Origin: Octopus vulgaris
Taxonomy: Eukaryota
Length of the DNA: 64,000 nt
Direction of reading: 5' to 3'
NCBI GenBank assembly: GCA_951406725.2
Contig: OX597815.1
Location: 85,250,001 to 85,314,000 of the forward strand
Shown here: positions 4,629 to 61,800 of the stretch, one piece after another
Position numbering within the stretch: the first letter of the stretch is position 1
How the letters are laid out: the number at the start of each line of letters is the position of its first letter
Notes under the pieces: model-generated
Database searches by the model: none
What the model was told of the DNA's origin: nothing
What the model saw: the letters and a program-made list of their open reading frames with translations, nothing else
Translations under genes and position numbers: made by a program

Positions 4629-5381
4629 AACAATTGATGAAGGAAATGAAAGGTAGATTTATCACTTAGTCTTTTTAGTATGATTATCGTTTTGACCCAT
4701 CCTGCAACTGTCTGTTATGGGTAGGATATTGGGCATCTAATTGTGTTGTATCAATCTATGCAGTTTGTGTTGTATCAGGTACATGCATAAAGAAGATGTC
4801 TCACTAGATATGCTGAGTTGTCCTAGGCATGTTGTTCTTGCTTGCTGCATTTTGGTTATGACTAACTAATGGAGCTGGCTACAGTTGTCTCTGAGTATAT
4901 AACATAAAATAAAAATCATACAATTATAAAGTATAGAGAGTAGAACCTGTCAAAGAGAGAGTACATTTAGATTAATGGAGAGGAGTGTGCACTCTGTCAT
5001 GAACACACACTCACTCATGACCAGCAGTGCACACCTTTCCTCATTAACTTAAATGTAAACCCTCTTTGATAGCTTGTACTCTCGATATCTTATGATTGTA
5101 TGATTTTAATTTTATGTTGTATACCCACAGACAGCTGTAGCTGGTCATAACCAAAATACAGTAGGCAAGAACACCATACCTAGGACATCTCAGTATATCC
5201 TGCAGGACATCCCCTTCTTTATGCATGTACCTGATGTGACACAAATTGCACAGACTGATGCAACACTATTAGATGCATGAAATCCTACCCGCAACGGATA
5301 GTTGTAGGATGGGTCAAAACGATTGTTGTACTGAATAAAGACTAGTGCTAAATCTATCTTCTGTTTCCTTCATTAATTATT
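4629..5381. repeat. About 750-bp diverged palindrome (foldback element)
   Basis: Arms align in reverse complement along their length, e.g. atcaggtacatgcataaagaag / cttctttatgcatgtacctgat; centre near 5008. Confidence 0.85.
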
Positions 5382-6006
5382 ATCTCAATTATCACTGGAA
5401 TTCCTGATGTAGATCCAGCAGATATATACCCCCACCGTGGATGATACCAGGTAGCCCAAACTGTGAACATGCTTTACTCAACACACTAATTGTCCAAATG
5501 AATTACACACACACATGTATATATGTATGTGTGTTTATTTCAAGTTGTATATAAGAACGATTTAGCATTAAACTACAGAAGTACTTATGCTTTTTAGTAG
5601 AGCACATGCTTGCTAAACTTTTACAAGAAGTGAAGTGATAATGACTTTGAAGTTTCAACCTGTTAGCCTTTGTTGAATAAAAGCAAAAAGGCCAAAACTT
5701 TGAAGTTACTGCCACCCCTTTTGTATAAGTTTTTCTCCTGTTCAAAATGTGGGCTATCATCAAAGAAAAATGTTTACGTATTTCCAGCAGTTATGGACTT
5801 AATATTTGTAGATTGTTCATAATTTTGAATTTAATAAATTAGGCTACCGAAACTGGTGTTCTATCTTGAACAGGTCATTTGTTTATTTTCTGTTTGATAA
5901 AAGCATATAATTTGCTTTACATGTGTCAAGATTTTGTTTTGTGGTCATGCTTTTATTTTTTATTTGAATTAAAATCTTTCTATGTGGTTTTCTTTTGCAC
6001 TCTTAG

Positions 6007-6021
6007 ATGAAAACTTTAGAG
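6007..6021 (+). CDS. MYOF: 15-nt microexon (MKTLE), probably alternative
   Basis: tttcttttgcactcttag|ATGAAAACTTTAGAG|gtaagt; consensus donor, phase 0-0, no stop. Confidence 0.7.
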
Positions 6022-7036
6022 GTAAGTCAATAAAAGTGGTTTTCAGTACACCCTTAAATTCATTAAATCATATGCTTTTTTTGCTAATTGCTATTTAGCA
6101 TATCAGCTAAGTTGATTTTGCTTAATTTCATTTATCCTTGCTACATAGCTGCTCTCATAGTCATTATCTTCATTGTCACCATTGTGCTGGCATGGTTTGA
6201 CAGATAGGCAATGTAGCATCCTGATCTTGTGTCATTTCACTCATGAAACCTGACAAATTTTTATGTCAGAACTTGCTCCTTACAAAGTCTTCTTTAGTCT
6301 AATTCTACAGAATTTGCCTAAGGAACAACTTCAGGGTAATTTTTCCTCAGCATGTATGATTCATTTCTGTTTATATATGAATGTGCATAGTTCTTTTTTT
6401 TTTTTCCTTTTTTTTTCCATACATCAGCCAATGTTTTTGATGGCTATTTGCATTCAACCATTATCAAGTGGATTCTTCATCAGTTTTGATATATTCGTTC
6501 ACTTAGTCATAACTTAGGTTAATGCCCCAAAAAGCATTGCATTGCTTACACATTTCATGTTGTTTACTTTTCATACAGAGAGAAAATATTACTAGCAGAG
6601 GGGCAATTATCTCACCATTTCCTGTTCTATCAAACCCTGTCCAATACGCTATCTCTATATTCCATTCCATTAATAATTGACACAGAGCTTATAAAACTTA
6701 GGAATTTCTTCTATTAAGGTAAATAACTGAATGCTTAGTTTCTGTTTACATATTCTATCAACTACTCAAATATGATATAGTGCAGCTCTTTCTCCCTCCA
6801 GCTTTCACATCCTCAATGTTCTGTTGGATCAAGGAGTGTGAAGACCAAGAGGGTGCCTGTATCTGCTCATGAAACAATTAATGCAGATATATGTTACCAG
6901 GTCATACTCACATATGAGTGACTGTTATGGTTTTAGTCAAGGACACTTCTGATTTCTGAGCAATCTACCTGAGATCCCACTTCATTTTTTTTTTTCTTTA
7001 TGTGTATTCATTATTTGCGATGATTACTCTATAGAC

Positions 7037-7201
7037 CAATGATTCCTGGCCTGTGGTCCGCAGACCCCTGGTGGTTCACAAAAGTAGTGCTAGGGATCCG
7101 TCAGCATGTTAAGCTGACAGACCTTTCAATATCCTGGGGTCTGGGGGAAATCTCATTTAAATAAAAGGTGTCCTTGGTAGTGAAAAGGTTGGGAACCACT
7201 A
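7037..7201. mobile_element. hAT/Charlie-type MITE
   Basis: Degenerate TIRs (caatgattcctggcct / aggttgggaaccacta); 8-bp TSD ctatagac / ctgtagac. Confidence 0.65.
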
Positions 7202-7898
7202 CTGTAGACTCTCTGTATACTCACTTTTTATGTATGAAGCAAGATTTACTATTTCTGTGCTAGTGCCTTTTTTTCTTTTTTCTTTTTTTTTGTTCCTGAC
7301 ACGAGCAACTTTTTAGCATCTTTAATACCTTTGAAGTTCTCATTCCATCCTTTTGATTTGAGAGTTTTTCTAAAATTTAAAAAAATTTTTTTTTTCATCT
7401 TAAGACTCTCTACAGAAAAATATTACTGACCATCCATTCTTGAATTCCTCGGACATTACTATAAGATAGTTGAGAATAGCCTTCCTTGATAGATACCCAC
7501 TGAGGATAGCCTTCCTTGATATATACCCACTACAATACTAAAATTCTTTATCTATCTCAGTGTTGATATTGATAAATTTCTCAAATTTTCATGCTTGTCT
7601 TGATCCAAGATCATAAGTCATTCATTCTCCTAACTGTCTCATCATCCAAACATTTTGCTTCAAAATTTTATTTGCTACTGCTTGACTCCTCAATCAAGTT
7701 AAAGATTTTTGGTAGACAAAAAAACTATTCCCTAGCTAATCACTAAAACTAATTAACACTATTCAGTTATTAGTGGTTGTAATATAAGGGTAACAAACTA
7801 TTGATGTAATATAACTACAAGAGCAAGTACAATGCAATACAGCACAATTACAATACAAGTTAATACATTTACTTCAGAATCAAGTGATTTACGAAACT

Positions 7899-8260
7899 AC
7901 AGGGTGGCCATAAAGTCATGCACCATCCTGCAATATGTGAAATTGCTAACATTCTCTTTTTTTATCTGTTTTCACAACTGCCACTATTACTCACAAACCA
8001 ATCCTCATTGAATGGAGGCAGATAATCAACAAAACGAGGGCAAGGTAATGGTGTAGTGTAGTGTGGGATTTAGCACAATCAAGTAATTGGACCGTTTTAT
8101 TTTGAGGGCTCTGTGACAGGTGATTCGTATCTGGACATGCTTAGCAACAAGATGCCTCACGTGCATTCACTTGGAAGGGGAAATTCTGTCTGGTTTCAGC
8201 AGGATGGGGCTCCACCCTATTATGCATTACAGGTTCGTGATTTTCTGAATGAACATCTAC
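7899..8260 (+). mobile_element. Tc1/mariner-superfamily transposase relic
   Basis: TA-CAGGGTG TIR-like start; ORF 8113..8328 contains SYLDML and WFQQDGAPP..A..VRDFLNE, the second catalytic Asp motif. Confidence 0.75.
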
Positions 8261-9574
8261 AGCTTTTAATCATTCAGATGTGGTTATGCAGGTATCTTGG
8301 AAACAAATCTTCTTTCTTTGCTCATTAACCACAATTCTTTAACTTCTTTAAAATTCTAATTTTTGTTTTTATTCTTAATATATATATTTAATTAAACTTA
8401 GCTTCTCAATTTCTTTTTCTTTTCTTTTTTTTCAATTTGGATATTTTACTGATATGAACAGAATTTTATAAAACTAGTCTTTTATCTGCTATTTATAATT
8501 ATCTTAATCTCAAGCTGATGGTTGTATTGTTTAAAAGTTTGACATTAAGAAACTGAAAGATTCATTTTGTTAATGAAATGTTTGGGTTTATATTGAAATG
8601 CTTTTCAAAATCAATGGCATAATCATTTCTAGATTATTTTTCTGTCTTAATTCTAAACAATACAATCAACTTTTTACTGAGATCATTCTTAATAGTTCTT
8701 GAAATCACTTATGGTTAAGTATTGTTATAAATACTCTAAACTAAGCTGAATGTATCCTTTGAATTCAGACAGCTTTCATAAAATTTAATTACTCCTCAGT
8801 ATTATTATAGCCTTGGAATCATATCAATACATTAAGACTGATAGTAAAAGTTAATATCTCTTCCTAACATTTCACTATTTTCTGTAGTTTGTTGACTTGA
8901 CTCTTCATGCTAGTCATATAAATTCTTTGAATTTTTACTGCATAATATGCATGAGGTGATATTTGCTATTTAAAGACAACAATGGAAATATTTTTTTGTA
9001 TTATTGTTTGTAAATCCTAATTATTTCTTTTAGTCATGTGGTAATATTTAACTGCTAAATGTTAATATATAAAGAAGAAAAAATATTTTTGATAATGTAT
9101 AATTTTATTCACGTTTGTAATCAAGTCTTTCAATCTTGTATATTGAAATAAATTTGTTGTCCAAGCCTCATTTGTATGTTTTCTGAAATTAGTTCATCCA
9201 TTTACATTTAGACTAACAGAAAGTAGAGTTTTAATCTTTCACTGTTATAAATATGCTTAGATATTAAGAACTAGTATGTGCACATACACAGACAGACAAA
9301 CACTCCCTTATCTATATCTACAACAAACTGATATGCTTCCTACAAGAAAGGTAACTTGGAAATCTTTTGCTTCTCTAAGATAACTTTCTTCAGTAACTTG
9401 GAAATACCTATATTAATTGCTTACTAAAGGGTGTTGGTTAAAGGTTCATTTTATGCTTGGCTTTTCATTTTTTTTTCTATTTATCATATGTATGTATGTA
9501 TGGATGTGTGTGTGTGTGTTTGTGTTGTAAAATGTGGAGGTGCATGGGTATTGTATTCATGATTATAAAATTGT

Positions 9575-9770
9575 AGTTTTGATTCCTGAACTGGGCAATG
9601 TGTTGTGTTCTTGAGTAAAACACTTCATTTTGCATTGCTCCAGTCCACTTATCTGGCAAAAATGAGTAATCCTTCAATGGACTGGCATCCCATCGAGGAG
9701 GAAAGATAATATATATGCCACAGAATCGAGGAAACCAGCATTATGAGCCTATAGCTTGGGAAAGACCTCA
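9575..9770 (+). mobile_element. Second SINE family; also at about 45090-45225
   Basis: gttgtgt(c/t)cttgag.aa.acac...cattgctcca motif shared by both copies. Confidence 0.5.
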
Positions 9771-9952
9771 ATTTTTTGTTATATATTTCAAAATAAGGAT
9801 AAGAATATTTAACATATCTATGCAATGCAATGCAACTGTGATGTCAGTTCCTGATTATAAGTCATTTTTATGAACCTATGGTTGTGATCACTTCAATGTT
9901 GAATTTATATAACAACGATGCATTTCTTTAAGATCCAAATCTTTCTTTGTAG

Positions 9953-9996
9953 TCTATTAAAGCATCATCTCAGAATGAGGCTGAAGACATTGAAGC
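9953..9996 (+). CDS. MYOF: Ferlin exon, FerI (SIKASSQNEAEDIEA)
   Basis: tttctttgtag|...|gtaagt, 44 nt, phase 0-2; gives EDIEANLL, cf. myoferlin DDVESNLL. Confidence 0.88.
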
Positions 9997-10319
9997 GTAA
10001 GTATTATAAACATAACTTTGTAATGGTTGAATACTTTTGTCTTGATTCCAATTTAAATTAGTTGTCTGTCTGACTATTTTGATTCCTGAGCCCAACTTTG
10101 CCTATAATGTAAACAAAGACCTTCTTCTACTACATATATTTGGCTTAGAACTATGGTGGTGATAGGTTTACCCTATGTGGAAAATTATTATGTATTTCTT
10201 GCATCTAAAATGCCTTGTTTATAATGATTTCCTTTTTTTTTCCATAACTTTTAGTTTCTACAAAATTTATTTACATCTTCATATTTCTAACACTGGTTCC
10301 ATTTACTGGGTCTCACTAT

Positions 10320-10540
10320 CACTGAGGATCTTTTTTAATGAAAACACATCCCAACTACTAGCTCCTCTCTTCAGGACCAGAAGATACTTCAGTCCCCAAC
10401 AATTATCAATTCTCTACAAAGCTGGTGTGGGGTCCATAATGGATTGTTGTGCTCGCTTCTAGGACAATCCAGAAAAGAACTAATCTGATTTATTGGCACA
10501 AAGTCTTTTACAGGCATACTCCAGTCTCTAGCCCTGTAAG
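10320..10540 (+). mobile_element. LINE (CR1/Jockey-like) RT C-terminal relic
   Basis: LFRTRRYFSPQQLSILYKA..SIMDCC resembles the LYKAxVRPxMEYC motif. Confidence 0.55.
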
Positions 10541-13387
10541 CTGGCTGGGATCATGCCACCTCCACTCAGCCTTTTCCAACTCACTTATCTCTCCCACTCC
10601 CTTAGCCCTTTCCTCCTAACAATCTCAGAGGTTATGCTGCTGGAGATGACATTTTGTTTGGTGATGGTTGCCTTTTGGGTTATAGGTCTTTTAAGGCTTA
10701 TGTTCTTGAGTAGAGACAAAGAAAAAATAGATTTCATGCATTTTCCTTAAAATATGAAATGGTAAAGTATATATATATATATATATATAGTTTCAAAATA
10801 CATCTCATGGATGTTCTGGAATGCATTGTCAGTGATGTTTCTGGATTCCCAGGGTGTTTCAGCATCAGACTCTCTCACCCATTTGACTCAGCCAAGATTG
10901 ATCATGTATCAGCTTCATCCCAGTAGCAGCAAACCACTTGTCTGCCCTCTTTATCCAAAGCCACCCAGTCTCCTTCTCTGCAGTTTCTTTGCTGCTCCAG
11001 TAACTCCAAGCCCAGTCAGAGCTTTGCAGAATGAATACCCCACAAAACCTCGAAAGCCCACTTCCTTGCAAAGTGTTTGCCAGCCCTGATTTTTAGCAAA
11101 CTTCTCATGTGATCACCTGTTTGGTGGAACATAAGAAGAATACTGCCTGTGGGCAGAGTGTTGTTGGTACAGTGTTCCGTATATAAGTGAAATAAAAGAG
11201 ATGTAAACCATATAAAAAATGTATGTACATATAAAGTGAACTGATATTCAAATAAATTTTATTTGTTTGTTTACTTCAGTTTGTCTTTAGCTCTATATAC
11301 AACAGAGCATGTTAATTGTAAATATGAAGCTTGGAACAATTCCACATTGAAGATGTTATAATTAAATGAAAAAAACATTCTTGTATTATGCATGATATAA
11401 AGAAAGAAAGACTTGAAAACATTTTCAGCTCCAAGTGTTCTGCATATAAGTAGTGAGGTTTATTTATAAAATTATTCTAGCAGAATGAAAGCTATTGCAC
11501 TTCAACCCTTTAGCATTTAAATAGGCCCAAGTATTCTACCTGTTTTATGTTCAAACCGGCTGGATGTGGCCTCTCACACCTACTCTACAACATTATTCTA
11601 CAAATAAACAATCACATCATTGAAACCTTGATTCAAAACAAGAGGAATAAATAAGCATAACATTTGACAGTAATTCAAATGCTAAAAGATTAATACCCAT
11701 TAATGCTGGATATAGATATGACGAAAATAAATTAAGTTGTTGAAAATCAAAATTCAAGAACTTTTCAAATTTTAAAGGAAGAAATAAAATACTTCATTTT
11801 TAACGTATTGACAGTTTTTTTTTTAGTTTTTTACTTTGGGTAAATCAGATTTATATTAATATAACAAAAGCTAAAATCTAATATAAATTCAAGTTATTAC
11901 TTTTATTCAATTGAATTGTTTATAATTTCTTGTTTGAATCCCCAGTTTTAGAATAATCCTTGATTTCGTTAGTTATTGATGAGTAGAAAATGAGGCTTTC
12001 TTTCTCATTCAAGCTGTTGTCCTATAAAATGTGATATTTAAGTGTGAGTCGATCATTGCTTTGAAATTTAAAACATTTTTATTGAAAAGTCATGTCTATC
12101 ATTGATCCAGATTAAATGTCAAAATTACAAGAAAACTTGTCCTTTTTCAATTAAAATAGAGATTGGTAGAATCTTTAGTGTGTCAGACAAAATGTCTGTA
12201 GTGTTTAGTTATGATTCTTTATGTTCTGAGTTCAAATACCACTAAGGTCATCTTTACTTTTCACTTGTCCAGGATCAATTAAATAAAGTACCAGTTAGGT
12301 ACTCTAATTTATTTCATATTCCTATAAAGCATCCTAGCTGAGAGTGGGATTATAATAGACTAGCTGGAGTGGTATTTTACAAAAGTAAAATACAGTTTAA
12401 TCTTAATATTTAGATAAATAAAGGTGGCAAGCTGGAAAAATCATTAACACACCAAACAAAATGCTTAGTGACATTCCATCCATCTTTACATTCTCAGTTC
12501 AAATTCCACCAAAGACCACTTTGCTTTTCATCTTTTCAAGGGGTTGATAAAATAAGTAACAGTCAAGCACTAGGGTTGATGTAATCAACTTACCCACTGC
12601 CTTGAACTTTCTGGCCTTGTGCCACAATTTATTTTGGTAAATAACAAAAAAAAGCCTCCATTTTAAAACATTTCTTAGCTGGGTTGTTTAAGATATGTAT
12701 ATATCTGAGGTGCTTCATTTCAGATAATCCTATTCTAGTAATTTGCATTTTTTTTTTTTTTTTTTTTTTGTAAATATAATTAACCAAAGATCTGGAACTA
12801 CCAAACAAACATTTCATTTAATTTTTTTAATCACTTAGGAAGGAAGGACAGTTACCTTAACACATTTCAGAACCACAGAGATGAATGGTTGAGAAAGAGG
12901 AAGATATTAAATATTTTCAAACTAGAAACCTGGCTTAAATATTTGCAACAAACTCTGTTAAAGGAACTCAAATATCAGGTGGTAGTTTTAAACTGGGCAG
13001 TGAATTTAGTTTAGGCTACAGGAGAATTTAAATTCAGAATGCAAAGAATCAGTGTAAGGTATTCTTAATGGCATTCTAATGATTCCATCAGTCCATCACT
13101 CTATTGATCAGAGAAAAATAAACAGCAACATTGATCTCAGCAGGATTTGAACTCAAATATAAGGAGCTTGAATAAAATACTGCAAGCTATTTTATCTGAC
13201 ATTCTAACAATACTGTTAATTCACGGGTGGAATCCTTGAAATTTTTATTCATTTTTTAAAAAAATATTTTGAAACATTAATTTAAAATGAAATGCAATAG
13301 GTTATTTAACAAACCACAATACTATACTGAAAATTCAGTTACTTTTATATATTTGGTTTTGAGTTTCTGGATATTATGTTTTTGTAG

Positions 13388-13470
13388 AAACCTTCTTCGA
13401 CCAGCTGGAGTCAGCTTACGACCTGCTACTTTTACAGTAAGATTATACAGAGCAGAAGATATTCCCAAAA
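13388..13470 (+). CDS. MYOF: Ferlin exon, FerI/C2C start (NLLRPAGVSLRPATFTVRLYRAEDIPK)
   Basis: tttgtag|...|gtaagc, 83 nt, phase 2-1. Confidence 0.95.
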
Positions 13471-13720
13471 GTAAGCAGTTTAATGGAAATATTTTTAAAC
13501 TTTAAAATCTTGTGTACATTTTATTTTTTTTTTTTATCCCTTATTTCTCTTTACTCAATAACAAACCAGATTGGTTGCAGATTTTCCAAAGGTAGTTCTG
13601 TGTGTGTGTGTTCTAAAACTATACTTTGTTGAGTTTATGATTAACAATAATTTATTGATTATAACAATTTTTGTAAATGTTTAAACTGAATAAAATATAT
13701 ATATACATATATGTATGCAT

Positions 13721-13762
<42 letters not shown>

Positions 13763-13931
13763 GAGAGAGGGAGTGAAAATCTGGGGGAAATATAGCATTA
13801 GGAAGGGCATCCAGCTATAGAAACTGTCAAAACAAACATTGGAGTTCAAAACTCCAGTGTTTGTTTTGACATAGTTTCTATGGCTGGATGCCCTTCCTAA
13901 TGCTAACTATGTCTCTCCCCCAGCTTTTCAC

Positions 13932-13940
<9 letters not shown>
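13763..13940. repeat. Inverted duplication of an RTE-family 3' fragment (hairpin) between microsatellites
   Basis: gcattaggaagggcatccagc...caaacattggag-ttcaaaa-ctccagtgtttg...gctggatgcccttcctaatgc. Confidence 0.8.
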
Positions 13941-13987
<47 letters not shown>

Positions 13988-14090
13988 TTGTCAAACTATC
14001 TCACCCATACCACCATGAAGAATGGACGTTAAATAATGATGATGATAGTTTTATAAATTGCTGAAAATTAATATTTCTTTATCATTGCAG

Positions 14091-14194
14091 TGGATTCTGA
14101 CTTTATTGAAGGAGTGAAGAAAGTGATAGGCTTTGGAGATGACAAGAAAGAGTTTGTTGATCCTTATTTCATCTTCTCATTTGCTGGGAAAGAG
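14091..14194 (+). CDS. MYOF: Ferlin exon, C2C (MDSDFIEGVKKVIGFGDDKKEFVDPYFIFSFAGKE)
   Basis: attgcag|...|gtaaaa, 104 nt, phase 1-0. Confidence 0.95.
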
Positions 14195-14914: not shown

Positions 14915-14983
14915 GTACGTTCAAAAACATTGTACTCTAATGATCATCCAGAATGGAATCAGGATTTGTCCCTTGGTCTGCAG
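14915..14983 (+). CDS. MYOF: Ferlin exon, C2C (VRSKTLYSNDHPEWNQDLSLGLQ)
   Basis: ctgtag|...|gtgagt, 69 nt, phase 0-0, PEWNQ C2 motif. Confidence 0.95.
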
Positions 14984-15582: not shown

Positions 15583-15626
15583 TTTCCTTCCATGTGTGAG
15601 AGATTAAAATTCATCATCAAGGATTG
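15583..15626 (+). CDS. MYOF: Ferlin exon, C2C (FPSMCERLKFIIKDW)
   Basis: ctttcag|...|gtatgt, 44 nt, phase 0-2. Confidence 0.95.
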
Positions 15627-17695: not shown

Positions 17696-17727
<32 letters not shown>

Positions 17728-17985: not shown

Positions 17986-18059
17986 GAATGTTTAACTTCT
18001 CTACTTACAGATGTAAATCCATTTGATTGTTTTTGATTTTTAAAAAACAATCATTATGA

Positions 18060-20202: not shown

Positions 20203-20450
20203 GTTTGTCCTTTCAAAGTTTTCGTTGGTCAATTTACAACATTCCCTCACCCCACCACACCTCTTGATACCTCCCAGTATTTTCGCTACTTCTGTGATTA
20301 AAAAATAAACTTCAAAGACCATTTTAACTGCATGCTGCCTTAATGACAGGAACACTAATCTGAACAAGACATTTTTCTTGATTGTTGCTTTCTATATCTG
20401 GAGATGTACTCGCATAGCAAGTAATTTGATCTGAGATCGTGTGCTGAAAC

Positions 20451-20715
20451 GAAAACAATTGCAGCGTGGAAGGTGTTTATAAGCCATTTAAGAAACACAC
20501 AAAAGCTGTTCGATTCACTTCAACATTTAAGTTTAATTTGTCAAATTGTTCACTGACAAAAATCCGTGCAGCACGGATTTTTGTCAGTGAACAGGTCGCG
20601 GATTTTAGCGACGAAAATATTTTGACAAATTAAACTTAAATGTTGAAGTGAATCGAACGGCTTTTGTGTGTTTCTTAAATGGCTTATAAACACCTTCCAC
20701 GCTGCAATTGCTTTC
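20451..20715. repeat. Near-perfect palindromic element
   Basis: Outer arms of about 95 bp nearly identical in reverse complement; inner perfect 23-bp arms at 20547-20593 around a single A at 20570. Confidence 0.9.
20580..20629 (+). ncRNA. Minimal type I hammerhead-like motif with G3-C8 swapped core
   Basis: TTTGTCA-GTGAACA-g-GTCGC-ggatttta-GCGAC-GAAA-ATATTT-TGACAAA: 7-bp stem I, 5-bp stem II, palindromic minimal stem III. Confidence 0.55.
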
Positions 20716-21999
20716 TGTATCATCATTTCAATTCGTTCATACTAAACTCGGCTGTCTATTTGCTCACTTCCATTGTTCTTTATGAACATAAAATCATATT
20801 CTTAACTCAAATAAAACAAATTACTAATGAATACCCTATCAAAGTTTCTGTCATGCTAAAATATAGAAACCCTTTATATGTGTGACCCTTATCTTGGGTT
20901 TTTATTCCTATTGTTTCTCAATAACTATTCACATACATTTTTTCAGTCTTTCTTTGTCAAGCATTCTGTTTTTATTTTCATCTATATAGCTATCATTCAA
21001 AGATGGATATTTGTCTCACTAACAGAAAAGATAATTTAGTCTTAACTGCTTTTAAAAAACAAAAACTTGATGTTGATTTTCTGTAAATTTACTTTCAGTC
21101 ATTGGCTTTATAACTGGAAAAGTTCTGTATTTCATGTATTTTCTTTAATCTGTTTTAGGCATCACATATCTCTAATCTAGTTCATTCTCTTTTTCAATAT
21201 TGATTTTTATAAAATGGTGCTGTACCAGCATTGGCCCATCAGAACTAATTAATAAACTCTTCATTATTTCTTCATTCATTTATTTCCGATTCACCTATTA
21301 TAAATCAGTCTAACTTAGTACAATCCTTTCATTGTCTAAAATATTTTTTCCATGCTTGCTGTTGATTTTTGCACTTTTCTACTGCCTACTCTGCTACAAA
21401 CTTGATGAATCTGATATTTTAATTCATTAACCATTAGCCTGTCAAAAGGGCTTTGACATCTATTTCTTTGTAAAACAATTTATGCTTTAGGGTGCCAGAT
21501 ATTTCCAGGATCTGAAAAGCTTTGCTTGCTAGTTGCATTTATTTGATCCAGAGTCAAAGAATATATATATACACACGTGTGTATGTATGTGTGTGGTTTC
21601 TAATATTTCTTTTGTACTATGTATATCACATCAAGATGAGCTGCATTCTTTTAATGCCATACTTTCACTACCAAAGAATTTTTTTCTCATTCTTTTAACA
21701 TTACTAAAAGTGGGAAATAATTGCAATCAACATAATGGGAGTTGGTTTTAAAAGAGAATTAAATACACATAGTTAACTATTTAAAAGTTGGGTTGTTTAA
21801 AATTACAGTTACACAAAAACACCTTTGAATATTAGATTATTATTTTAAAATCCTAGGTAATCTTTCTTTAGCTAGTTTTCAAAACTAAATGTTGAAGCTT
21901 TAAGCATTTTAATTTCAAAAGAGGTCATAGAAGTAAAGTAGAACACAATGTAGCATTTTAATGTAAATTCCATGTCGTAAAAAAATACCTGATTTTCTC

Positions 22000-38865: not shown

Positions 38866-39046
38866 TACTATAGCAACATTATTTTCTGTTTGTAGCCAAA
38901 CTCAAATTTTGTTGGTCTACTAAATTAAGTACGTATCTTACTTTCTAGTGAACAGAATTACAAACTAGAAAGTAAGATACATACTTAAGTAGACCAACAA
39001 AATTTGAGTTTGGCTACAAACAGAAGAAAATAATGTTGCTATAGTA
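38866..39046. repeat. About 180-bp hairpin palindrome
   Basis: tactatagcaacattatttt...ctttctagt / actagaaag...aaaataatgttgctatagta with a loop of about 14 nt. Confidence 0.9.
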
Positions 39047-44298: not shown

Positions 44299-44775
44299 AT
44301 CATCATCATCATTTAACGTCCGTTTTCCATGCTAGCATGGGTTGGATGATTTGACTGAGGACTGGCGAACCAGATGGCTGCACCAAGTTCCAGTCTTGAT
44401 CTGGCAGAGTTTCTACAGATGGATGCCCTTCCTAACGCCAACCACTCCGAGAGTGTGGTGGCTGTTTTTATGTGCCACTGGCATGAGGGCCAGTCAGGCG
44501 GTACTGGCAACGGCCATGCTCAAATGGTGTTTTTTATGTGCCACCTGCACAGGAGCCACTCCAGCGGCACTAGCAACGACCTCACTCGAATGTTTTTTTC
44601 ACATGCCACCGGCACAAGTACCAGTAAGGCAACGCTGGTAACGATCACGCTCGAATGGTGCTTTTCACGTGCCACTGGCATGGAAGCCAGTTAGCTGCTC
44701 TGGCAATGATCACACTCGGATGGTGCTCTTAGCACTCCACTAGCACGGATGCCAGTCATCGAATTTGATTTTGAA
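44299..44775 (-). mobile_element. RTE-family 3'UTR copy
   Basis: (CAT)n-ttaacgtccgttttccatgctagcatggg...ggatgcccttcctaacgccaaccactccgag plus tandem subrepeats of about 55 bp. Confidence 0.75.
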
Positions 44776-51960: not shown

Positions 51961-52030
51961 CAACATTGATCTACATAGTTTGTATCCTTATATTTTAGTC
52001 TCACATTTTTTTTTCTCCTCAATTATACAG

Positions 52031-52145
52031 CCTCATGTTTGATAAAGATGCTGGTCACCGCAACTATCTAGAAGAGGTTTATGAAAACCAATACAGACTT
52101 CCTCGGGGTACTTGGGGACCAATGAAACAAGCATGGAGTGATGTG
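52031..52145 (+). CDS. MYOF: Ferlin exon, inner DysF (LMFDKDAGHRNYLEEVYENQYRLPRGTWGPMKQAWSDV)
   Basis: tatacag|...|gtaaaa, 115 nt, phase 2-0. Confidence 0.95.
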
Positions 52146-52812
52146 GTAAAATATCGTTTTTTATTACTTAAACTGTCACTGAGATTCAAGGAATATGTTG
52201 TTTAAATTTGGCTAAAATTGGTATTTGACTAGCTAGTGCTCATTTCAATCAGAAAAAAATTAAAAGATTTAAAGTGAGATACATTAGTGGATTATGATGA
52301 AGGAAAAAGAATGAAATGTTTAATGCAAAGTCCTTTGTCAAAATAGAATTTTAAGACAAGTTTTCTTTTACCAGACTACTGGCATTTTAGACTCCATTTT
52401 TCTTGATGCATTATTTCAATCATTTATCATTAATTAGTTAGACTCTTTTTATTATCTTCCTATCTTTAAATAATGCAACTTTTATTAATATTCATCAAAG
52501 GTGATGTTGCATACTTTTTCTTTTACCTTCCTAATGAAGAAAACTGTCCAGAGAATTACATTTTCCATAGTGTACCAACTTTTGAGATTTTTAATAATGT
52601 AACCCAAGTCAGCATGAAAACATTGACATATACAAGTGAGATTCTGAAAACAAATACATGCTTCCTTGTTTGAGGTTCTATTTAACAGAATATAGACTTC
52701 ATTTTAAACAACTATAGCAACTGAAAAGCTATTATTCATAAATTTGGTCTCAGAATGTATAGTTGTCTTGTTAAAATGATTCACGTCATCTGAATGTGAT
52801 CCCCTTTTTCAG

Positions 52813-52915
52813 AAAGGAGATGTTATGCCATCTAAAGATGAAACCAAACTCCCAGAAGGATGGAAATGGGATGACGACTGGAAAATTGATTTAAGCAGAG
52901 CTGTAGATGAAGAGG
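52813..52915 (+). CDS. MYOF: Ferlin exon, inner DysF (KGDVMPSKDETKLPEGWKWDDDWKIDLSRAVDEEG)
   Basis: ttttcag|...|gtaaga, 103 nt, phase 0-1. Confidence 0.95.
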
Positions 52916-54448
52916 GTAAGAAATTATTTCATTGCAATTATTTTTTAAAATCTTTTAACTGAATAAAGTATTTATAACTATTGCATCAAATACAAAAATC
53001 ATCTAGTTGTGAAGAAAAACCTAAAACATTATTTAATTTAGTATAGGACAATATGTCCAGGAAAGAGTTCTGTGCAATAAACCTGTCTTACACAAGTGAA
53101 CTGATGATAGAATGATAGGTTCCAAAAATTCATTGATTTTAGTAGTTTATTGAACAATGGAAAAATTTACCTGTTTTCAATGTGTTGGAAAAATTAATCC
53201 AGAAAATAGTGTAAGTATGGCTTGTAGAGAACTAATTAAATTAAAAGATGGAGTTCCCTAAGTATTAACTTTACTTTCTACCTGTCCTTAAAAAAAGACA
53301 AAACATTAAAGGAAGAAACTTACCTAAGGGAACAAATTTAAGTAAGTTAAATATTTGGTTTGAATAATGGTTTTCTATTTAAAAACTGATCAATAGATTG
53401 TAGTTATTTTTAAAATAAAATACCTTTACATATGTGTCCTGACAAAAAGAAATCGCCTTAGTTTTTAAAGATGCTGTCTTATCCCATTATATAAAAAAAA
53501 AAACTTATAACGTTATATAATTTAAAATCAGACTATATGTGCAGGAAAGAGTATTGTGTGATAAACCTGTTTAACAGAAGCCAACTAACAATAGAATAAA
53601 ATTTTAGAAGGTTCCAAAAATTCAGTGACAAGGAACGCCATCTTTTAGTTCAGTTAGTTCTCTGCAGGTCACACTAACTATTTTCTGGATGAATTTTTCC
53701 AATACATTGAACAGGTAAATTTTTCTAATTGCTCCAGCAATTTGTATGCAGAACTATTCTATCCTACTACAATAGTAGGTGCAGAGGACCATTAAGCTTA
53801 GCATATAATTAGGTTTCATTTGTCATAGCATTTTAGTGTGTGTAATGTGGCATTGTTGTGCAACTAATTAGATTATTCATAAGCTATATATCTATATCTA
53901 TCTGTGTGTGTGTGTGTGTATATATAAATATATAAACTGAAATTTTTTTGATACCCAACAGTCCAAGACTGCCCATGGAGCTAGGATACAAACTTCCTAT
54001 TTTAAATTGACCTAAATTAAAACCATCCGTCAAAATTTCATGCTAATTTATGTTCCAAACTCCAGTTTCATAATAATAAAATTATTTTACTAAATTCCTC
54101 AATATTACCAAAATTAATTAAAATAAAGTTAATGTGTTTTAACAGGGATTTGGTAACAAAAGGATTAAGAGGTTGGGCTACTAATGACATGATCATAAAT
54201 TCAAATCTTAAAATAAATGTAACCCTCCTGCCTTAGGAATATACTTCTATTTGTACCAGTTGATCTGCCTGAAAAATAGGCACTATTTTGTAATAAAGTG
54301 GTTAGGTACAGTAACAGCATCTAACTTCAAAATTATTCAGGTAGCAAATATTCTAATTCCTTATTAGTATGGGAAAAAATGTAAAAATATGCATGTATTG
54401 CTCGTTTAAATAAATAAAATTTTCCTTATTTATCATTTCATTTACCAG

Positions 54449-54579
54449 GCTTTGAATACTGTGTTGAGGCTACAATGGGAGGTTATGGTCCTGTTCAGAA
54501 AAACTATCATCTCTGCAGACGTCGTCGCTGGGTCAGATCAAGAAAATTAGTGGTTGATGAAAAGGCAAAGCAAAAAAAG
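54449..54579 (+). CDS. MYOF: Ferlin exon, inner DysF C-part (FEYCVEATMGGYGPVQKNYHLCRRRRWVRSRKLVVDEKAKQKK)
   Basis: ttaccag|...|gtattt, 131 nt, phase 1-0, RRRRW motif. Confidence 0.95.
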
Positions 54580-55245
54580 GTATTTACTTGAAACTGTTTT
54601 CATATTTTACTAGAATAATATACCAGTCAAATACTGGGTTAGTTTAATTAACTATGCCCTCCTAAATACATGGTCTTCTGTCTATGCTAGAAATCAGTAT
54701 CATAATCTGATATTAATAATTAATCTGAGATATGTTAAGTCAAATATTTTATTTGCATTGAAGAATAAATGTTTAATTTATTACATGTTCATATGTAAAA
54801 CAAAACTTAAATACTGTATTTTTTAAAAATTCAAAATATAAGGTACTTTGGGTGTTAGGTACAGAACAGACTTGGAGAAATTATGGAAGTTTGCCAGAAC
54901 CCAAAAAGCCTTGAAATATCAATCAGAAATTGAGGTTTACTTAGAGATTCTTATTCCTGGATATGGTTTATGTATTGCCTGATGATTCCATAATGTGATC
55001 ATAAATGGGAGACAGAGCTTGAACGTGGGTGGACAATTGTAATAGAAATAAGTTGAAGACTGGCACTTCTATAACCACAAATGAATCTACAATTGCAACA
55101 TTTAAATTTAATTTTCCTAAACAATGTTTTTTTTCATTATTTTAAATAGGAGTAGTCGTATGTATGTAGTTTGTTGTTTTTTTGGGGTTTTTTTGAAACC
55201 TTGTTTTTTCTTTCTTTTTACCTTTAAACTATCTATTATTTTCAG

Positions 55246-55410
55246 GAAAAACTTGAAAAACAAGCAGCTGAAGGTTGGGAATATGCCCCATTGTTCAGCA
55301 TGAAGTTCCATGCCAAGGAACGTAAGATGGATCTTGTCAGACGCAGAAGATGGCATAGAAAAATGATATCAAAAGGAATTGGTGGAGCATGTTTCTTTAG
55401 AGTAGCTGAG
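55246..55410 (+). CDS. MYOF: Ferlin exon, outer DysF C-part ([22 protein letters not shown]...[10 protein letters not shown]...RVAE)
   Basis: tttcag|...|gtaaag, 165 nt, phase 0-0, GWEY and RRRRW motifs. Confidence 0.95.
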
Positions 55411-56917
55411 GTAAAGACATTTTTTATTGTTTCAGTTCTTTTTTCAATTGTAAGTAAAGGGCTAAGATGTATTTGTATCAGTTTAATATAATGTTGATGA
55501 AAATGAACTTTCTCAAAACTTATTATAATGGTTTGAGTATGACCTGTTGTGAGTGCAATAAGAATGTTTACCATAGTAACTTTGGTAAATGACGAAGGTA
55601 TTGGAACAGTTGAGGTGAGTTAGTTGTTTATTACCAGGAAGATCACTGTAAGTGAATAACAGTGTAACAATTTTTTTTTTTGTCTTTGGTTAGTAAGTGT
55701 TATTTCTTATTTGCTTCAAAGAAATCAAAGGAAATGACTACTATTCCCTTAAAACTTTGCTCTTGTGACTTCGACATCAATGTTTTGAAACTGACCTATT
55801 TTCCATTACATTTCGGACAGATTCAGTTGCTGAAGCAGAAATATCATTATATCAAATATTCTGCTCATTACCACAGATATGCTTGTCAGTTACTTGATTT
55901 TAACCACTTGAGTGTGTTCCTTAGTGGCTGACAATATGTACATCTTTGAGCAGGAGTAGTAGATTGAGAGGGATTCTTTGGAGTTTGAATAAATGTAATA
56001 AAAGCAAAGTTTGAAAGAATTTTTAGTCATTTTTCATACTCTCTAAGGGTAAGCAAATAGGAAATAACCCAAGGTCAAAAATTGTGTCACACAGTGTAAT
56101 TGAAGTACCATGAATGGTTGTGACACTAATTTGAAGAATGTTTAAATAAATATACACTAAGTAAAACAGTTTAATCTTAATGAAGAGTTTAAGTTGCATA
56201 CTAAGTGAAGGTACTGACAGTATTCTTATTAAAATCTTCCTTCAGCAATGTGTCCTTACTCTGAATAAAAGCATATTACTTTACTTACATTAAGGAACTA
56301 AGCTGAAAAATAAATCTTTCTTCTATCACTTAGTTCAATATTTAATCTTAATTTTCAGTGTTTCTCATATAGCTTCATATTACCAAAGCTAATTTTAACC
56401 TGTGTAAAGTAGTTGAAAAATAAGATTTGGTGTTTAAAGGTCATGAAATTAAACTTTGCTACAATGATTTTATTTGAAATGTAAGGTATGCCTTTCATAA
56501 ATAAACTTACAATTTTTCGTTCACTGTGAAAATTAAACATCACAGCTTTTTATCTATATGGGAAGAAAAAGTAGAATTAATTTGACTAGTTTCTAATATT
56601 GTTAGTTCTTCATTAGTAAAATGTCAAAGAGAGATTTGTATACACTATAATGAATACAAATGAGAAATGTTTCACTGGTTAGTGTAATTTGGATTACAAT
56701 GCATGTTTTATCATGAATTAATTTATAATGCACTATGCAACAATTTTGGATAATTTGTAATGTAGGGTAGACTGTTTTCTATGAACATGCAATTTCAGTC
56801 TGTGCAGCAAATAAACAAAATGGTTATGCCACACACTCTCCCTCCCTCTTTTTCTCTCTTTCTCTCTCTCTCAATTTGTACAAATTATATTTTTATTTTT
56901 TTTCCTTTGTGTTATAG

Positions 56918-56975
56918 GATGACTCTGACAAAGAAGTTGGTATGATATCACCACGAATGTTTCTTACATTTGGGG
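56918..56975 (+). CDS. MYOF: Ferlin exon, linker (DDSDKEVGMISPRMFLTFG)
   Basis: gttatag|...|gtaaat, 58 nt, phase 0-1; needed to restore phase to the next exon. Confidence 0.88.
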
Positions 56976-57870
56976 GTAAATATTTTTAATAGTTTTCTTT
57001 TTTTTTTTCTTTTACAACTATCTAATTGCTGTTAAGTCCATGTATAATATACTACTATATGTAACACTCGCCTCAGATTTGGTCCTTAATTGGTCTTAGT
57101 AGGTAGGAAAAAAATTTTGCAGTCTGTGGCATTAGGCTGAAAAAATGCAGCTAAGCACTAGACAAATTTCATCTTCTGTTACTCAAAGTTCAAATGCTGT
57201 TGAAGTCAGCTTTGCCTTTCATCTATACAGGGTCAAGGAAATAAATACTAGCCAAGCACTGAGATCAATGTAATTGACAGACACCTTCCCAGAAAGGATT
57301 ATATATTGAGGTTAATTTGATCTGTCCACAACTTTTATGATATTTAAAGCCATTTAATAAACTTGGTTTGGGAATAATTTGCGTTTCATATTTCTTGGTT
57401 TGGGAATACTTTGCGTTTCATATTTCTAAAACTAATGTGCCATGGTGTCATAAAATATTAATTTCTTAAAGTATTTCCTATACATATATTTAATTACACA
57501 TTTCATGAGCCACAAAAAAAAATCAAAGGATTTGTATTTAAATCAAGCTTTTGATAACTTTAACCAAAGGATAAACAGCTCTAAAGTGCAATAAAAAAGT
57601 TTAGACCCTATTTTCTACGGGTGGTTTATAACTGGTATTTAAGCTTTAATGCAGAAGTCCCAGGACTTTAAACAAACAACCCCTACTTATATATATATTG
57701 CCTATTGTACATAAATTATGAATTTAAAGGATCTATATATTCTTCACAAAAGTTGTATTTTATTCAAAATACTGGAAAGATGTATTTTTATTATCATTGA
57801 TTGTTAAAATAAATATTTTGTAATTAAAAAATGTATATTTAAAATGAATTCTTGATATTTTTGTTTCCAG

Positions 57871-57948
57871 AACCTCAAATTTATCAGCTTCGAGCTTACT
57901 TGTACCAAGCTAGAGATCTTGCAGCTGCTGATGATTCTGGTCTTTCAG
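57871..57948 (+). CDS. MYOF: Ferlin exon, C2D start (EPQIYQLRAYLYQARDLAAADDSGLSD)
   Basis: tttccag|...|gtactg, 78 nt, phase 1-1. Confidence 0.96.
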
Positions 57949-58480
57949 GTACTGCCTTCATCTTGACAAATATAAATTAATATGTCATTGTACTATTTTC
58001 AGATCGACTACCCCAATTTAACTAATAAAAAAGGAATTTTCTTGACTCTGATTTAAAGCTTATATGTTAATCATACTATTAGTGTACTTAACTCTAACCA
58101 TTATAAGTAAAGTTGATTTCTTCCAACAAAAATTTAAATAAAATTTTCCACTTTATTCCTTTGGCAACATTAAATACCCAGCAAATCAGTCATCATCATT
58201 TATCATCTGTCTTCCATGCTGGCATGAATTGGACAGTTTGATAGTAATTGGCAAGTCAAAAAACTATGCCAAGCCCTACTATCTGCTTGGGTTTAATTTT
58301 TGTTGTGGTATGCCCTTCCTAATATGTGTAAGAATCTGCTGTGTTTGTATTAGCATAGTTTGATGTCAGATTGTAGCCCCTGCAGCCAATCCATTCTAGC
58401 CTGGAAAGGTAGACAATGAAATAAGTACAACAGTCGACAGATCTTAACTATGAAAGTTTTTTTTTTTCTTTTTCTTTCAG

Positions 58481-58662
58481 ATCCTTTTGCAAGAGTATCA
58501 TTCCTTAAACAAAGTATGGTCACTGAACCATTTAAGAAATCACTTTGTCCAACCTGGGACCAGACCTTGATCTTTGAGCAATTAGAAATCTATGGTAATC
58601 CTCAGAATCTAGAAATGCAACCTCCAGATATCTTTATGGAGATTTTTGACCATGACATGTTT
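58481..58662 (+). CDS. MYOF: Ferlin exon, C2D (PFARVSF...LCPTWDQTLIFEQLEIYGNP...EIFDHDMF)
   Basis: ctttcag|...|gtaagt, 182 nt, phase 1-0. Confidence 0.96.
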
Positions 58663-59099
58663 GTAAGTACTTAAATTTTTGCTTGCAAGATCATTTTGAC
58701 TTCACACCTTTATCAGAATGAATGAATCATACATTTCCATTTTTCAAAAGTATTTTGGGAATTAGTGAAAATTTTCTACTTTATATTATATACTACTATA
58801 TCATTTGGCTTGTTTGGTACCCAGCTATTTAATATATAACTATTGTTTAATATCAAGAACTAAAACAAAAGCACTACTTCTTACCAGATTTTCCTTTAAA
58901 ATAACATTTCTTAATTTTTAGAGACAGTATAAAGTCAGATTTCTAAATGTCTTGCAGTTATACTTTGCAATTTTTTAAGAAGATAATGGGAAAGTATTTC
59001 ATTATTGATCATAGTTTGGCAAAGTTGATATAATTTTTATTATAAAAACATATTTAATAGATTTCTGACTTTAATGATTCAAGTCCATTTAAATTTCCA

Positions 59100-59560
59100 A
59101 AAATAAATCAAATGGAAATTGTAGTTGTGAGCCCCGTGCCGGTAACATGTAAAAAGCACCATCCAACTGTGGCTAATGCCAAGTCAAGTACATCAACATC
59201 AGCAATATCAAAATCAAATCAAATGGAAATTGTAGTGAGCCCCATGCCAGTAGCACGTAAAAAGCACCATCCGAACGTGGTCGATGCCAGTGCCGCCTTG
59301 ACTGGCTTCCATGCCGGTAGCACGTAAAAAGCACCATCCGATCATGGTCGATTCCAGCTCCCCTAGCCCCTTGTGCCAGTGGCACATAAAAAGCACCCAC
59401 TACACCTCGGAGTGGTTGGCATTAAGAAGGGCATCTAGCTGTAGAAACACTGCCAGATCAGATTGGGGCCTGGTGCAGCCTCCTGGTTTCCCAGACCCCT
59501 GTCAAACCATCCAACCCATGCCAGCATGGAAAACGGATGTTAAATGATGATGATGATGAT
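59100..59560 (+). mobile_element. RTE-family 3'UTR copy in the opposite orientation
   Basis: Reverse complement of the 44299 family, ending in (ATG)n. Confidence 0.75.
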
Positions 59561-60147
59561 TAATGACTTGAGATAATTTTACTGTTTTTCTATTACTACT
59601 ACTACTACTACAAATGTTTAATCTCCTGCAGCTTGATTCTTGAGCAGGCTTGCACAGCTCTGAAAATGAAATGAGGTATGCTTTAAGAAAAATTGCTCTA
59701 CACTACAGATTTCAAATAAAGTAGACAAATATTTAAAATTTATTATAAATCTTGAATAGTGGGCAGAGAATTTAATTTCAGGTTTTGAAGTTTTAATATC
59801 AAATTTTTAAATATATATCAAACTTCCATGCTGCTCAAGACAAATTTTGTAAATAAAACACAAGCGATGTTTAGTTTTATATATATTTTGGTGAGTGGTA
59901 TGCATGTCATTCTGAGGTGCCTCATGGATCAAATGTTATACAGACTTGTTGAGGTTATTTTACTTTTGGTGACAAATCTTGCTATTCAGTGTCATTTATC
60001 CTATTGCATTCGCAGAACATCATTCACTAAGAAGCCAGTATGTTCCCCACTTTTTTTATATACTAATTAAAACTTGTTAAATATATGATTTTTGACATTG
60101 CTTTATGTAAATGATTGTTGGTATCTCTAAAATTTGTTTTTCTGTAG

Positions 60148-60297
60148 GGCAAACCTGAATTTCTTGGCCGATCTAAAGCTAGCCCAATGGTAAAGCTTGA
60201 TCCTGCTGATGCTCGAAACCCAGTTTTACAATGGTACCCTGTTTATAAGAATGAGGTTGCAAAAGGAGAAATTCTAGCTGCCTTTGAATTGTTCTTG
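60148..60297 (+). CDS. MYOF: Ferlin exon, C2D end (GKPEFLGRSKASPMVKL...LQWYPV...GEILAAFELFL)
   Basis: tctgtag|...|gtaagt, 150 nt, phase 0-0. Confidence 0.96.
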
Positions 60298-60450
60298 GTA
60301 AGTATATATATATATATTTGATTAGAGGTTGTGTTAATCTCATGAATGTATGGTTTCATTAAAGTAAATACTAGTTCAATACCTAGTATTTTGGGGTAAT
60401 TAATTTCTTTAAAATAATAGGTATATATAAAAACATATAGTTTATAGTCA

Positions 60451-60862
60451 TACAAAAGAAGAAAAAGAAAACAGATTTGAAGTTAATAATTGTTTATTAT
60501 TTACAACAAATTAATCATCATTCCTTACAGCTGTTTCAATTAACGCTCAGTAAATATTAAAGTTATATGATTTGAGCATATCTTCAGAAGAATCAATCTG
60601 CAAACCCCTCACCTGAACATATAACAATAGAAATCATAAACAGTATCATTCAGTCTGCTATAGTGAATAAATAACACATATAAAACATCCAAGGGTATAT
60701 TTTTTCCCTCTGAAGATATTATGCTCAGGTCATATAAATTTAATATTTACTCAATATTTACTGAACATTAATTGAAACAACTGTAAGTGATGATAATTAA
60801 TTTGCTGTTAATAATAAACAATTATTAACTTACCAATCTCAATTATCTTTTTCTTCTGTTTT
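60451..60862. mobile_element. Older inverted-repeat element with hammerhead motifs in both arms
   Basis: About 60451-60592 is reverse-complementary, with divergence, to about 60707-60862. Confidence 0.7.
60521..60592 (-). ncRNA. Penelope-type minimal hammerhead motif, partly degenerate; second copy at about 60705-60790 +
   Basis: On the minus strand: TTCTT-CTGAAGA-(ATGCTCA/TGAGCGT)-GAAAC-AGCT-GTA-AGGAA, with palindromic stem III ACAGCTGT. Confidence 0.6.
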
Positions 60863-61004
60863 ATATATATATATATATATATCAACAATCAAGGAACGGC
60901 TATAATAGGCCATTCACCCACTAGAAATAACAGCCAAAGCTTCAACCGCAAATAAAAATTAATTCCGTAAACCAGGAGAAAATTTAAAAAACATTTACCC
61001 TGTA

Positions 61005-61111
61005 ATTTCTTATACGATATACCGTTTCATCTGCTGATTAATGGTAAACTAACCTGATTAAATTAAATCAAGCCAATCTTCCACAGGCCCTCAGATTCTT
61101 CAGTAAGAAAT
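61005..61111 (-). ncRNA. Type I hammerhead ribozyme motif, inverted copy of 61565-61671
   Basis: Reverse complement of the + strand motif within the inverted arm. Confidence 0.8.
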
Positions 61112-61564
61112 AGCCCAAGTCGGAACAGATATTTTCACGAGGCATTTCCGACCTTGCCAAGTTTATATCTGACCTAAAATTTTCAAAATGTTTTTTAAAT
61201 TTTCTCCTGGTTTACGGAATTAATTTTTATTTGCGGTTGAAGCTTTGGCTGTTATTTCTAGTGGGTGAATGGCCTATTATGGCCGTTCCTTGATTGTTGA
61301 TGTTGAACTTAAAAATGGTCTATGACTATTTTAATTTTTTCCCACTAGGCCGCTGGTGGCAAAAGAATTCTACAAAATTTTTTTTTGCCACCCTATATTG
61401 ATTAATTATGAATTTTCTGGTTAATTCCGTAATGGAATCGACGGCTTATATTTATTTGCTGCCGATAAATTTGGCGCGAGTGCGACGATTTGAAAATTTT
61501 AGGTCAGATATAAACTTGGCAAGGTCGGAAATGCCTCGTGAAAATATCTGTTCCGACTTGGGCT

Positions 61565-61671
61565 ATTTCTTACTGAAGAATCTGAGGGCCTGTGGAAGAT
61601 TGGCTTGATTTAATTTAATCAGGTTAGTTTACCATTAATCAGCAGATGAAACGGTATATCGTATAAGAAAT
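61565..61671 (+). ncRNA. Type I hammerhead ribozyme motif, intact
   Basis: Stem I ATTTCTTA/TAAGAAAT (8 bp), core CTGAAGA (61573-79), stem II ATCTG/CAGAT with a long insert, GAAA (61648-51), stem III ACGG-TATA-TCGT, GUA cleavage triplet ending at 61663. Confidence 0.85.
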
Positions 61672-61800
61672 TACAGGGTAAATGTTTTTTAAATTTTCTC
61701 CTGGTTTACGGAATTAATTTTTATTTGCGGTTGAAGCTTTGGCTGTTATTTCTAGTGGGTGAATGGCCTATTATGGCCGTTCCTTGATTGTTGATATTGA

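Follow-up and report, generated by a model that had tools for sequence, protein, structure and literature searches.

Intronic palindromes with hammerhead motifs in an Octopus vulgaris ferlin gene: probable footprints of Penelope-like integration

Introduction

Penelope-like elements (PLEs), with their truncated and non-autonomous derivatives, are the closest described counterparts of the repeats considered here, four inverted duplications (E1-E4) bearing hammerhead ribozyme motifs in a ferlin gene of Octopus vulgaris. They lie in a stretch of 64,000 nucleotides (assembly GCA_951406725.2, contig OX597815.1, positions 85,250,001 to 85,314,000 of the forward strand), hereinafter referred to as the window. 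The PLE protein is described as cleaving and extending both target strands, with two internal RNA start sites and a tail that is the stretch between them, and the PLE hammerhead as inactive without the protein (PMC11167929). An inverted 5′-truncated copy, a one-sided tail and a (TA)n bias have been described for PLEs (PMC8557442), as have opposite-strand hammerhead pairs spaced 100-700 bp from each other and a low activity of monomers (PMC4209133). As far as the text of these sources goes (PMC8557442, PMC4209133, PMC11167929), E1-E4 resemble PLEs and their derivatives in having an inverted 5′-truncated copy, partial tandems, a tail on one side only and (TA)n targets, and their families share with PLE hammerheads the extra base after position 9, a stem III that is palindromic and an occurrence in opposite-strand pairs separated by a few hundred bases. 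They differ in having tails of ~55-150 nt instead of 30-40 nt, in having no open reading frame (ORF), and in the G3-C8 core of E2 and the U at position 9 of E1.

Metazoan non-LTR (long terminal repeat) retrozymes, as described in PMC7229834 and 10.64898/2026.07.22.740005, are like E4 in the non-coding tandem unit, one type I hammerhead per monomer and the dimer-type stem III; the E4 monomer (~492 nt) is longer than their units of 220-400 nt. Most E4 loci carry an inverted arm, whereas the word "inverted" occurs 0 times in PMC7229834 and once, in a reference title, in 10.64898/2026.07.22.740005. A third relevant system is that of the inverted-repeat substrates of ADAR, where, likewise, long double-stranded RNA (dsRNA) arises in pre-mRNA from neighboring repeats that are inverted or palindromic; octopus and frog showed the strongest hyper-editing signal, and a lizard Penelope is massively edited, at over 40 K sites (PMC5625713). 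The octopus sites are given in the text of that study without assignment to repeat families, and at E1-E4 dsRNA is predicted.

The comparison leads us to the reading that the four palindromes are, very probably, independent insertions of four high-copy non-coding families with a type I hammerhead or its relic, likely mobilized by PLE proteins, and that masking of the ribozyme by the opposite arm is a side effect. Judging by sequence, each of E1-E4 is a high-copy non-autonomous PLE or retrozyme family. The recurring palindrome pattern is explained as the footprint of PLE integration, and none of the findings needs a new kind of system.

Results

Self-BLAST of the window identified the inverted duplications E1 at 4627-5383 (77% identity, E 6e-162), E2 at 20442-20725 (79% identity), E3 at 60435-60878 (69% identity) and E4 at 60862-61823 (97% identity, with a 309-nt arm pair that is 100% complementary). 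The same search showed nothing beyond short chance matches among E1-E4. The window lies inside a plus-strand ferlin gene, and exon matches place all four duplications in its introns. A first-pass annotation of this DNA had proposed at least four sequence-unrelated intronic inverted duplications, which the self-BLAST and the ferlin exons bear out; its coordinates did fall on the duplications, although the true elements reach further through a one-sided tail. It had also placed TA-rich tracts beside most elements, and E1 and E4, for example, do lie at (TA)n; the window copy of E2 lacks such a tract, which many other copies of its family have.

All four elements carry outward-facing hammerheads or relics, with the type I core and its three stems in type I order: the core is canonical in E4, has the 3-8 pair swapped in E2, is kept at the family level in E3, and survives only as a relic in E1. 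The further suggestion of a hammerhead or relic in each arm fails for the upstream arm of E2, from which stem II, GAAA and the cut site have been deleted. For E3, the core was expected to read sense downstream and antisense upstream and is indeed present on both arms, but the better-folding copy is the antisense one. A descriptor scan yielded three complete type I hammerheads, at 20587-20622 (+), 61573-61663 (+) and 61103-61013 (-). Each of them also satisfies the strict descriptor, for which shuffled sequences gave 0 in 12 out of 12 cases, with 0-2 at the looser setting. An Rfam scan returned no hammerhead, only miRNA-like matches on hairpins and microsatellites.

E4 consists of an inverted 5′-truncated copy that starts in (TA)n (60879-61187, -) and contains an intact antisense hammerhead (61111-61005), a partial tandem copy without hammerhead (61186-61301, +), representing the 3′ 116 nt of the monomer, and a full retrozyme monomer of ~492-494 nt (61302-61797, +), after which come a remnant of the tail and (TA)n. 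The intact type I hammerhead of the monomer (61565-61671, +) has an 8-bp stem I, CUGAAGA at 61573-61579, a long stem II, GAAA and a self-complementary stem III, with a predicted cut after 61663. The 492-nt unit is very young, with near-identical copies across many contigs and head-to-tail arrays in (TA)n; its exact core has 792 matches in the genome, the reversed control none, and it occurs from monomers to arrays of at least nine cores. By its non-coding tandem arrays with a 492-nt period and an intact type I hammerhead per unit, E4 is classified, on sequence grounds, as a non-LTR retrozyme. No tandem arrays of full units were found in 92 E2 loci, and the E1 and E3 families occur only as solo, inverted or partial-tandem pieces; hence, E1, E2, and E3 are provisionally filed as non-autonomous PLE derivatives instead of retrozymes. 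No ORF was found as part of E1-E4, including an ORF with reverse transcriptase (RT) and GIY-YIG domains between pseudo-LTRs, as expected of an autonomous PLE. At 61798-61806, almost the entire 108-nt tail of the window's E4 copy has apparently been deleted via short microhomology, and only the last bases remain.

E2 comprises a one-sided tail of ~55 nt (20400-20454, -), the upstream arm with the deletion described above (20455-20569, -) and the downstream arm (20571-20715, +), a short non-autonomous element of ~200 nt with the tail. Its minimal type I hammerhead (20580-20629, +) is characterized by a swapped G3-C8 core (GUGAACA), an extra base after A9, a 5-bp stem II and a palindromic stem III, with a predicted cut after 20622. 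The family has 6,323 exact 20-mer matches in the genome. Among 93 parsed cores, GAAA is kept in 84 and the 3′ strand of stem II in 70, with a variable loop II; youth alone could account for part of this conservation. The canonical C3-G8 version of the E2 17-mer has 19 genomic matches, of which five fetched copies (L254-L258) look like a divergent sister family, and the two single-swap versions have 241 and 20 matches.

At the 3-8 pair, U3-A8 is described as natural covariation (PMC3088659, PMC4209133); G3-C8 is mentioned solely as an engineered change giving partial rescue (PMC11167929, PMC3884650). We found no report of a natural G3-C8 hammerhead in the main-text literature, whose supplements or figures might list G3-C8 or A9U variants. 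Thus, we tentatively regard E2 as a new, natural G3-C8 hammerhead, with activity only predicted. Such a family would escape standard hammerhead descriptors and provides a natural test of core base-pair swapping.

One solo intact E2 copy (L143 / L122, C1 ~6,252,900) lies upstream of an opposite-strand ATG, at a distance of a few tens of bases; the ORF resembles a dCMP deaminase. Nine out of 42 solo E2 copies (L146, L155, L156, L169, L170, L175, L179, L183, and L199) run upstream into a longer, microsatellite-rich parent, which ends with a branch-point and a 3′ splice-site-like motif exactly at the start of the short form. This end resembles the D. virilis Penelope intron, described as ending at the hammerhead (PMC4209133).

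E1 and E3 represent older families. The upstream arm of E1 (4627-4993, -) is an antisense 5′-truncated copy that starts from a (TA)n tract and contains a decayed hammerhead relic; the downstream arm (5020-5383, +) has ~76-85% identity to other copies of this old family, and a one-sided tail of ~110 nt (5384-5492, +) is common to other family copies. The downstream type I relic (5216-5341, +) is predicted to be dead, with U at position 9 of the core (5231-5237) and AAAA for GAAA at 5316-5319; the same G12>A change is found in both window arms. The family relic retains stems I and II, CUGAUGU and a palindromic stem III, with GAAA in 10 out of 25 copies and AAAA, which we read as probable CpG decay, in another 10. 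Most copies have U for A at position 9 and a long, internally bulged stem II (L056-L080, L259-L270). In exact searches of variants of the E1 3′ half, one variant had no matches and the palindromic one had 36, all 12 fetched matches being E1-family copies. A CTGATG..GAAA motif at 5255-5285 was considered as the E1 hammerhead and rejected as copy-specific.

In E3, the one-sided tail (60303-60450, -; approximate limits) is followed by the upstream arm (60451-60640, -) with the better-preserved hammerhead (core 60587-60581, GAAAC..GUA 60537-60526), and the downstream arm (60641-60862, +) contains a relic (60706-60789) whose core bases are kept and stems damaged. The signature CUGAAGA...GAAAC-N4-GUA is retained on both arms, at 60710-60785 (+) and 60587-60526 (-), and the core is present in 19 out of 25 family copies. 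The U-U at 10.1-11.1 in this family corresponds to a mismatch described among natural hammerheads (PMC3088659).

The layout of the window recurs throughout the families. Loci were sampled by position behind the first 100 listed matches per family, giving 92 E2 and 36 E4 loci, 128 in total, of 10 kb each. The window's own E4 locus and the six out of 128 loci with the hammerhead region under the coverage threshold on both strands were left out, and loci under the skew or length thresholds were dropped per count. Inverted arms were found in 77 out of 128 loci: 75 are outward (minus, then plus), two ambiguous, and none inward. With 20 more E4 loci added, 42 out of 43 are simple outward pairs and one is a double outward pair. 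The tail is present on exactly one arm in 50 out of 50 E2 and 27 out of 27 E4 inverted loci, i.e., in 77 out of 77, and in 41 out of 43 of the enlarged E4 set; the E1 and E3 families likewise show inverted 5′-truncated copies with a one-sided tail. The arms within one insertion differ by a median of 4.3%, compared with 7.8% between insertions (30 loci). Family copies have AT-rich or (TA)n flanks, according to a by-eye reading without a genome-wide background.

The first-pass annotation had proposed that the antisense arm, being transcribed first, can pair over the ribozyme, creating long dsRNA. Equilibrium folding predicts just that: the pair probability of stem I, at most ~0.8 in E4 and 0.7-1.0 in E2, falls to 0.0 once the upstream arm is added. 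All hammerhead stems of E4 then drop to 0.0, E2 loses stem I and keeps stem II, and the E3 arms also pair. Even without the upstream arm, stem III of E4 has a pair probability of only 0.06-0.07. Stem III is predicted to self-dimerize, with -13.6 kcal/mol in E4 and -11.1 kcal/mol in the E3 family, and the E4 stem III corresponds to the dimer-type design described as inactive as a monomer (PMC4209133).

The transcript data consist of runs, that is, contigs from other animals on a multi-copy family, whose RNA status is guessed and which are not assignable to this locus. Over 60430-61850, the ratio of A>G/T>C to G>A/C>T changes is 24:5 in run X1 and 26:10 in run X4, both RNA-guessed, and 19:15 and 5:3 in two large genomic-looking runs; the Fisher test against run X15 gives p 0.03 for X1 and 0.21 for X4. 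A>G changes at 61110 and 61112 are common to both RNA-guessed runs and missing from X15. Taken over 60430-61850, the excess is weak and visible at the level of the family. Two out of four RNA-guessed runs have a clear A>G excess over 54-64 kb, and the other two have little. No change at a core position was found among the 40 of 82 rows listed for 60430-61850. E4 family sequence is present in RNA-guessed runs. Run X19 bears the species label of X15; its contigs extend over the E3 family but over almost none of the E4 family. A filter effect, wrong labeling or a recent burst specific to one lineage might explain this, and absent E4 cover proves nothing.

Discussion

The end structures suggest the following sequence of events. 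The PLE protein would cut AT-rich DNA on both strands; each end would prime reverse transcription of the 3′ part of the element RNA, with two start sites lying close together; and the two cDNAs would join at their truncated 5′ ends. Such joining would force both element 3′ ends outward, with the tail on one arm only, at any locus; thus, if a palindrome arises from a single insertion with priming at both ends, the outward orientation is imposed by the mechanism. The tail count, one per inverted insertion, is genomic support for the model with two start sites and priming on two strands. Because integration would turn both 3′ ends outward, the antisense arm would always come first in the host transcript and, where it reaches the hammerhead, would mask it and form dsRNA, likely to be edited by ADAR like any inverted repeat. 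Masking would probably be unneeded, because the hammerheads likely cut poorly as monomers and require a dimer or the PLE protein.

In order to assess whether masking is selected, the direction of transcription was approximated by the T>A skew of repeat-masked flanks, which is positive in six out of six bins of the window (+0.04 to +0.10). The hammerhead is on one strand only in 75 out of 128 loci, and 53 out of 99 E4 cores among the clusters listed, the last of 38 being omitted, have no opposite partner. Unmasked intact hammerheads are sense in 20 out of 39 cases at |skew|>0.03, 14 out of 24 at >0.05, and 39 out of 65 at any skew. The annotation had expected solo sense-strand intact hammerheads to be rarer than masked ones; by this proxy, the expectation is not borne out. 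Nor did the expected enrichment of masked pairs in transcribed DNA appear, the skew of masked loci being no higher than that of unmasked loci (Mann-Whitney p 0.94 and 0.84). The purposeful link between element, ribozyme, and editing that it envisaged is thus not upheld: the family-wide outward layout with one tail per insertion fits PLE integration, and most loci are unmasked. The mirror layout is likely a by-product of insertion and not a device selected to silence the ribozyme.

Several points weigh against PLE integration with incidental masking. The partner is the nearest relative for only nine out of 30 arms, and 77 rare variants are found on one arm compared with nine common to both, as expected after aging, although this is not proof. 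We infer two-strand priming from how the element ends are built and from in vitro work on a lizard element. No autonomous partner could be linked to the E1-E4 families among ORFs of at least 220 aa in the sampled loci. The monomer inactivity of E4 is not certain, given the coral retrozyme monomer, which is described as efficiently cleaved (PMC7229834). The skew proxy is calibrated on this window alone, and its power is modest. E2 loci whose inverted arm lacks the hammerhead are sense in only two out of 14 cases (p 0.013). Retrozymes are reported to be depleted from Xenopus introns, so some selection exists (10.64898/2026.07.22.740005).

ORFs with PLE RT and GIY-YIG do exist in this genome. The element at L183:2-4911 (-) is a Penelope-like element with RT plus a GIY-YIG at the C-terminus, in partial tandem and with a separate 454-aa ORF before it; inspection of its 3′ region by eye showed no hammerhead. 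The PLE ORFs near L139, L155, and L183 were considered as partners and rejected, as we found no terminal sequence that they have in common with the families and they look like neighbors.

The best surviving alternative combines the mechanistic geometry with weak purifying selection against some unmasked sense copies in introns, mainly dimer-competent arrays. It draws on the Xenopus depletion, on the E2 subset with two out of 14 sense, and on arrays with at least two unpaired cores, three out of eight of which are sense. The array value is not significant (p 0.73) and becomes eight out of 14 at any skew, solo E2 copies are sense in 16 out of 25 cases, and the E2 subset is confounded because the tail-bearing arm of E2 is on the T-rich flank strand in 37 out of 49 loci (p 0.0005, post hoc; L126-L217). 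This bias, absent from E4 (8 out of 22), suggests an insertion polarity relative to transcription or a local asymmetry. Several post hoc tests on a crude proxy exclude strong selection, not a weak effect, and we consider the combined explanation possible but rather unlikely.

A broader reading would have PLE two-strand priming seeding thousands of hairpins in octopus introns, as a major source of non-coding hyper-editing, with masking and editing letting active hammerheads, including G3-C8 ones, persist and be switched by ADAR. Its dsRNA-source part is plausible; a selected, editing-controlled switch is argued against by the skew proxy, and as a whole it appears improbable.

According to the masking explanation proper, palindromes persist in introns since the upstream arm masks a harmful ribozyme, which ADAR switches off or on. 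It agrees with the predicted folding (full masking in E4, loss of stem I in E2), with the A>G-type excess in X1 and X4 and the two shared sites at 61110 and 61112, and with the E2 subset. The GT..AG junction 60296>62701, spanning E3 and E4, is found in three out of four RNA-guessed runs, so the intron is spliced, though those animals may lack E4 there. Against this, unmasked intact hammerheads are as commonly sense as antisense; the bias in E4 at any skew (12 out of 15 sense, p 0.035) is opposite to the one required; the sense hammerheads are damaged or dead in two out of four window elements; the rows listed contain no core-position change; and E1 lost its core through a G>A change at a CpG, opposite in direction to A-to-I. 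We regard this explanation as highly doubtful.

Transposition of whole palindromes as fold-back DNA transposons resembling MITEs (miniature inverted-repeat transposable elements), with hammerheads as passengers, was suggested by the nearly fixed center in most of the 40 best E2 matches, a result rejected as query bias since the query included that center and, among position-sampled E2 loci, 42 out of 92 copies are solo; arm lengths also vary, tails are one-sided, no fixed terminal inverted repeats occur on every copy, and E4 head-to-tail arrays have variable inversion points, so the solo copies, the tandem arrays, and the one-sided tails have in large part ruled out this extremely improbable model.

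Returning to PLE integration, several of its components have been published, namely inverted PLE copies, opposite-strand hammerhead pairs, and heavy editing of the lizard Penelope; the newest remainder is, tentatively, the natural G3-C8 hammerhead. We found in the literature no study of PLE editing in octopus and no paper linking hammerhead, intron, antisense, inverted repeat, editing, and retrotransposon together. Editing of such arms would be expected but ordinary. The families are nonetheless likely to supply abundant dsRNA within introns, in an animal whose RNA editing is very high.

Other Features of the Window

The ferlin gene is represented by the FerI exon (3279-3425, +), which puts E1 and E2 within the gene, a candidate C2-type exon at 14915-14983 (script-based call only), matches to FerA, DysF-like, and C2 at 45.5, 52.8, and 58.4 kb, respectively (Pfam scan of window ORFs), and a myoferlin-like C2-region exon (60148-60296, +) spliced to 62701. 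In the Pfam scan of 87 window ORFs and four locus ORFs, the matches in the window comprised three ferlin-type exons and one weak unrelated family. Two more short palindromes, at 13763-13941 and 38866-39046, have an arm identity of 83-85% and no hammerhead according to the descriptor scan; the former resembles a dispersed repeat near 44397 and 59406.

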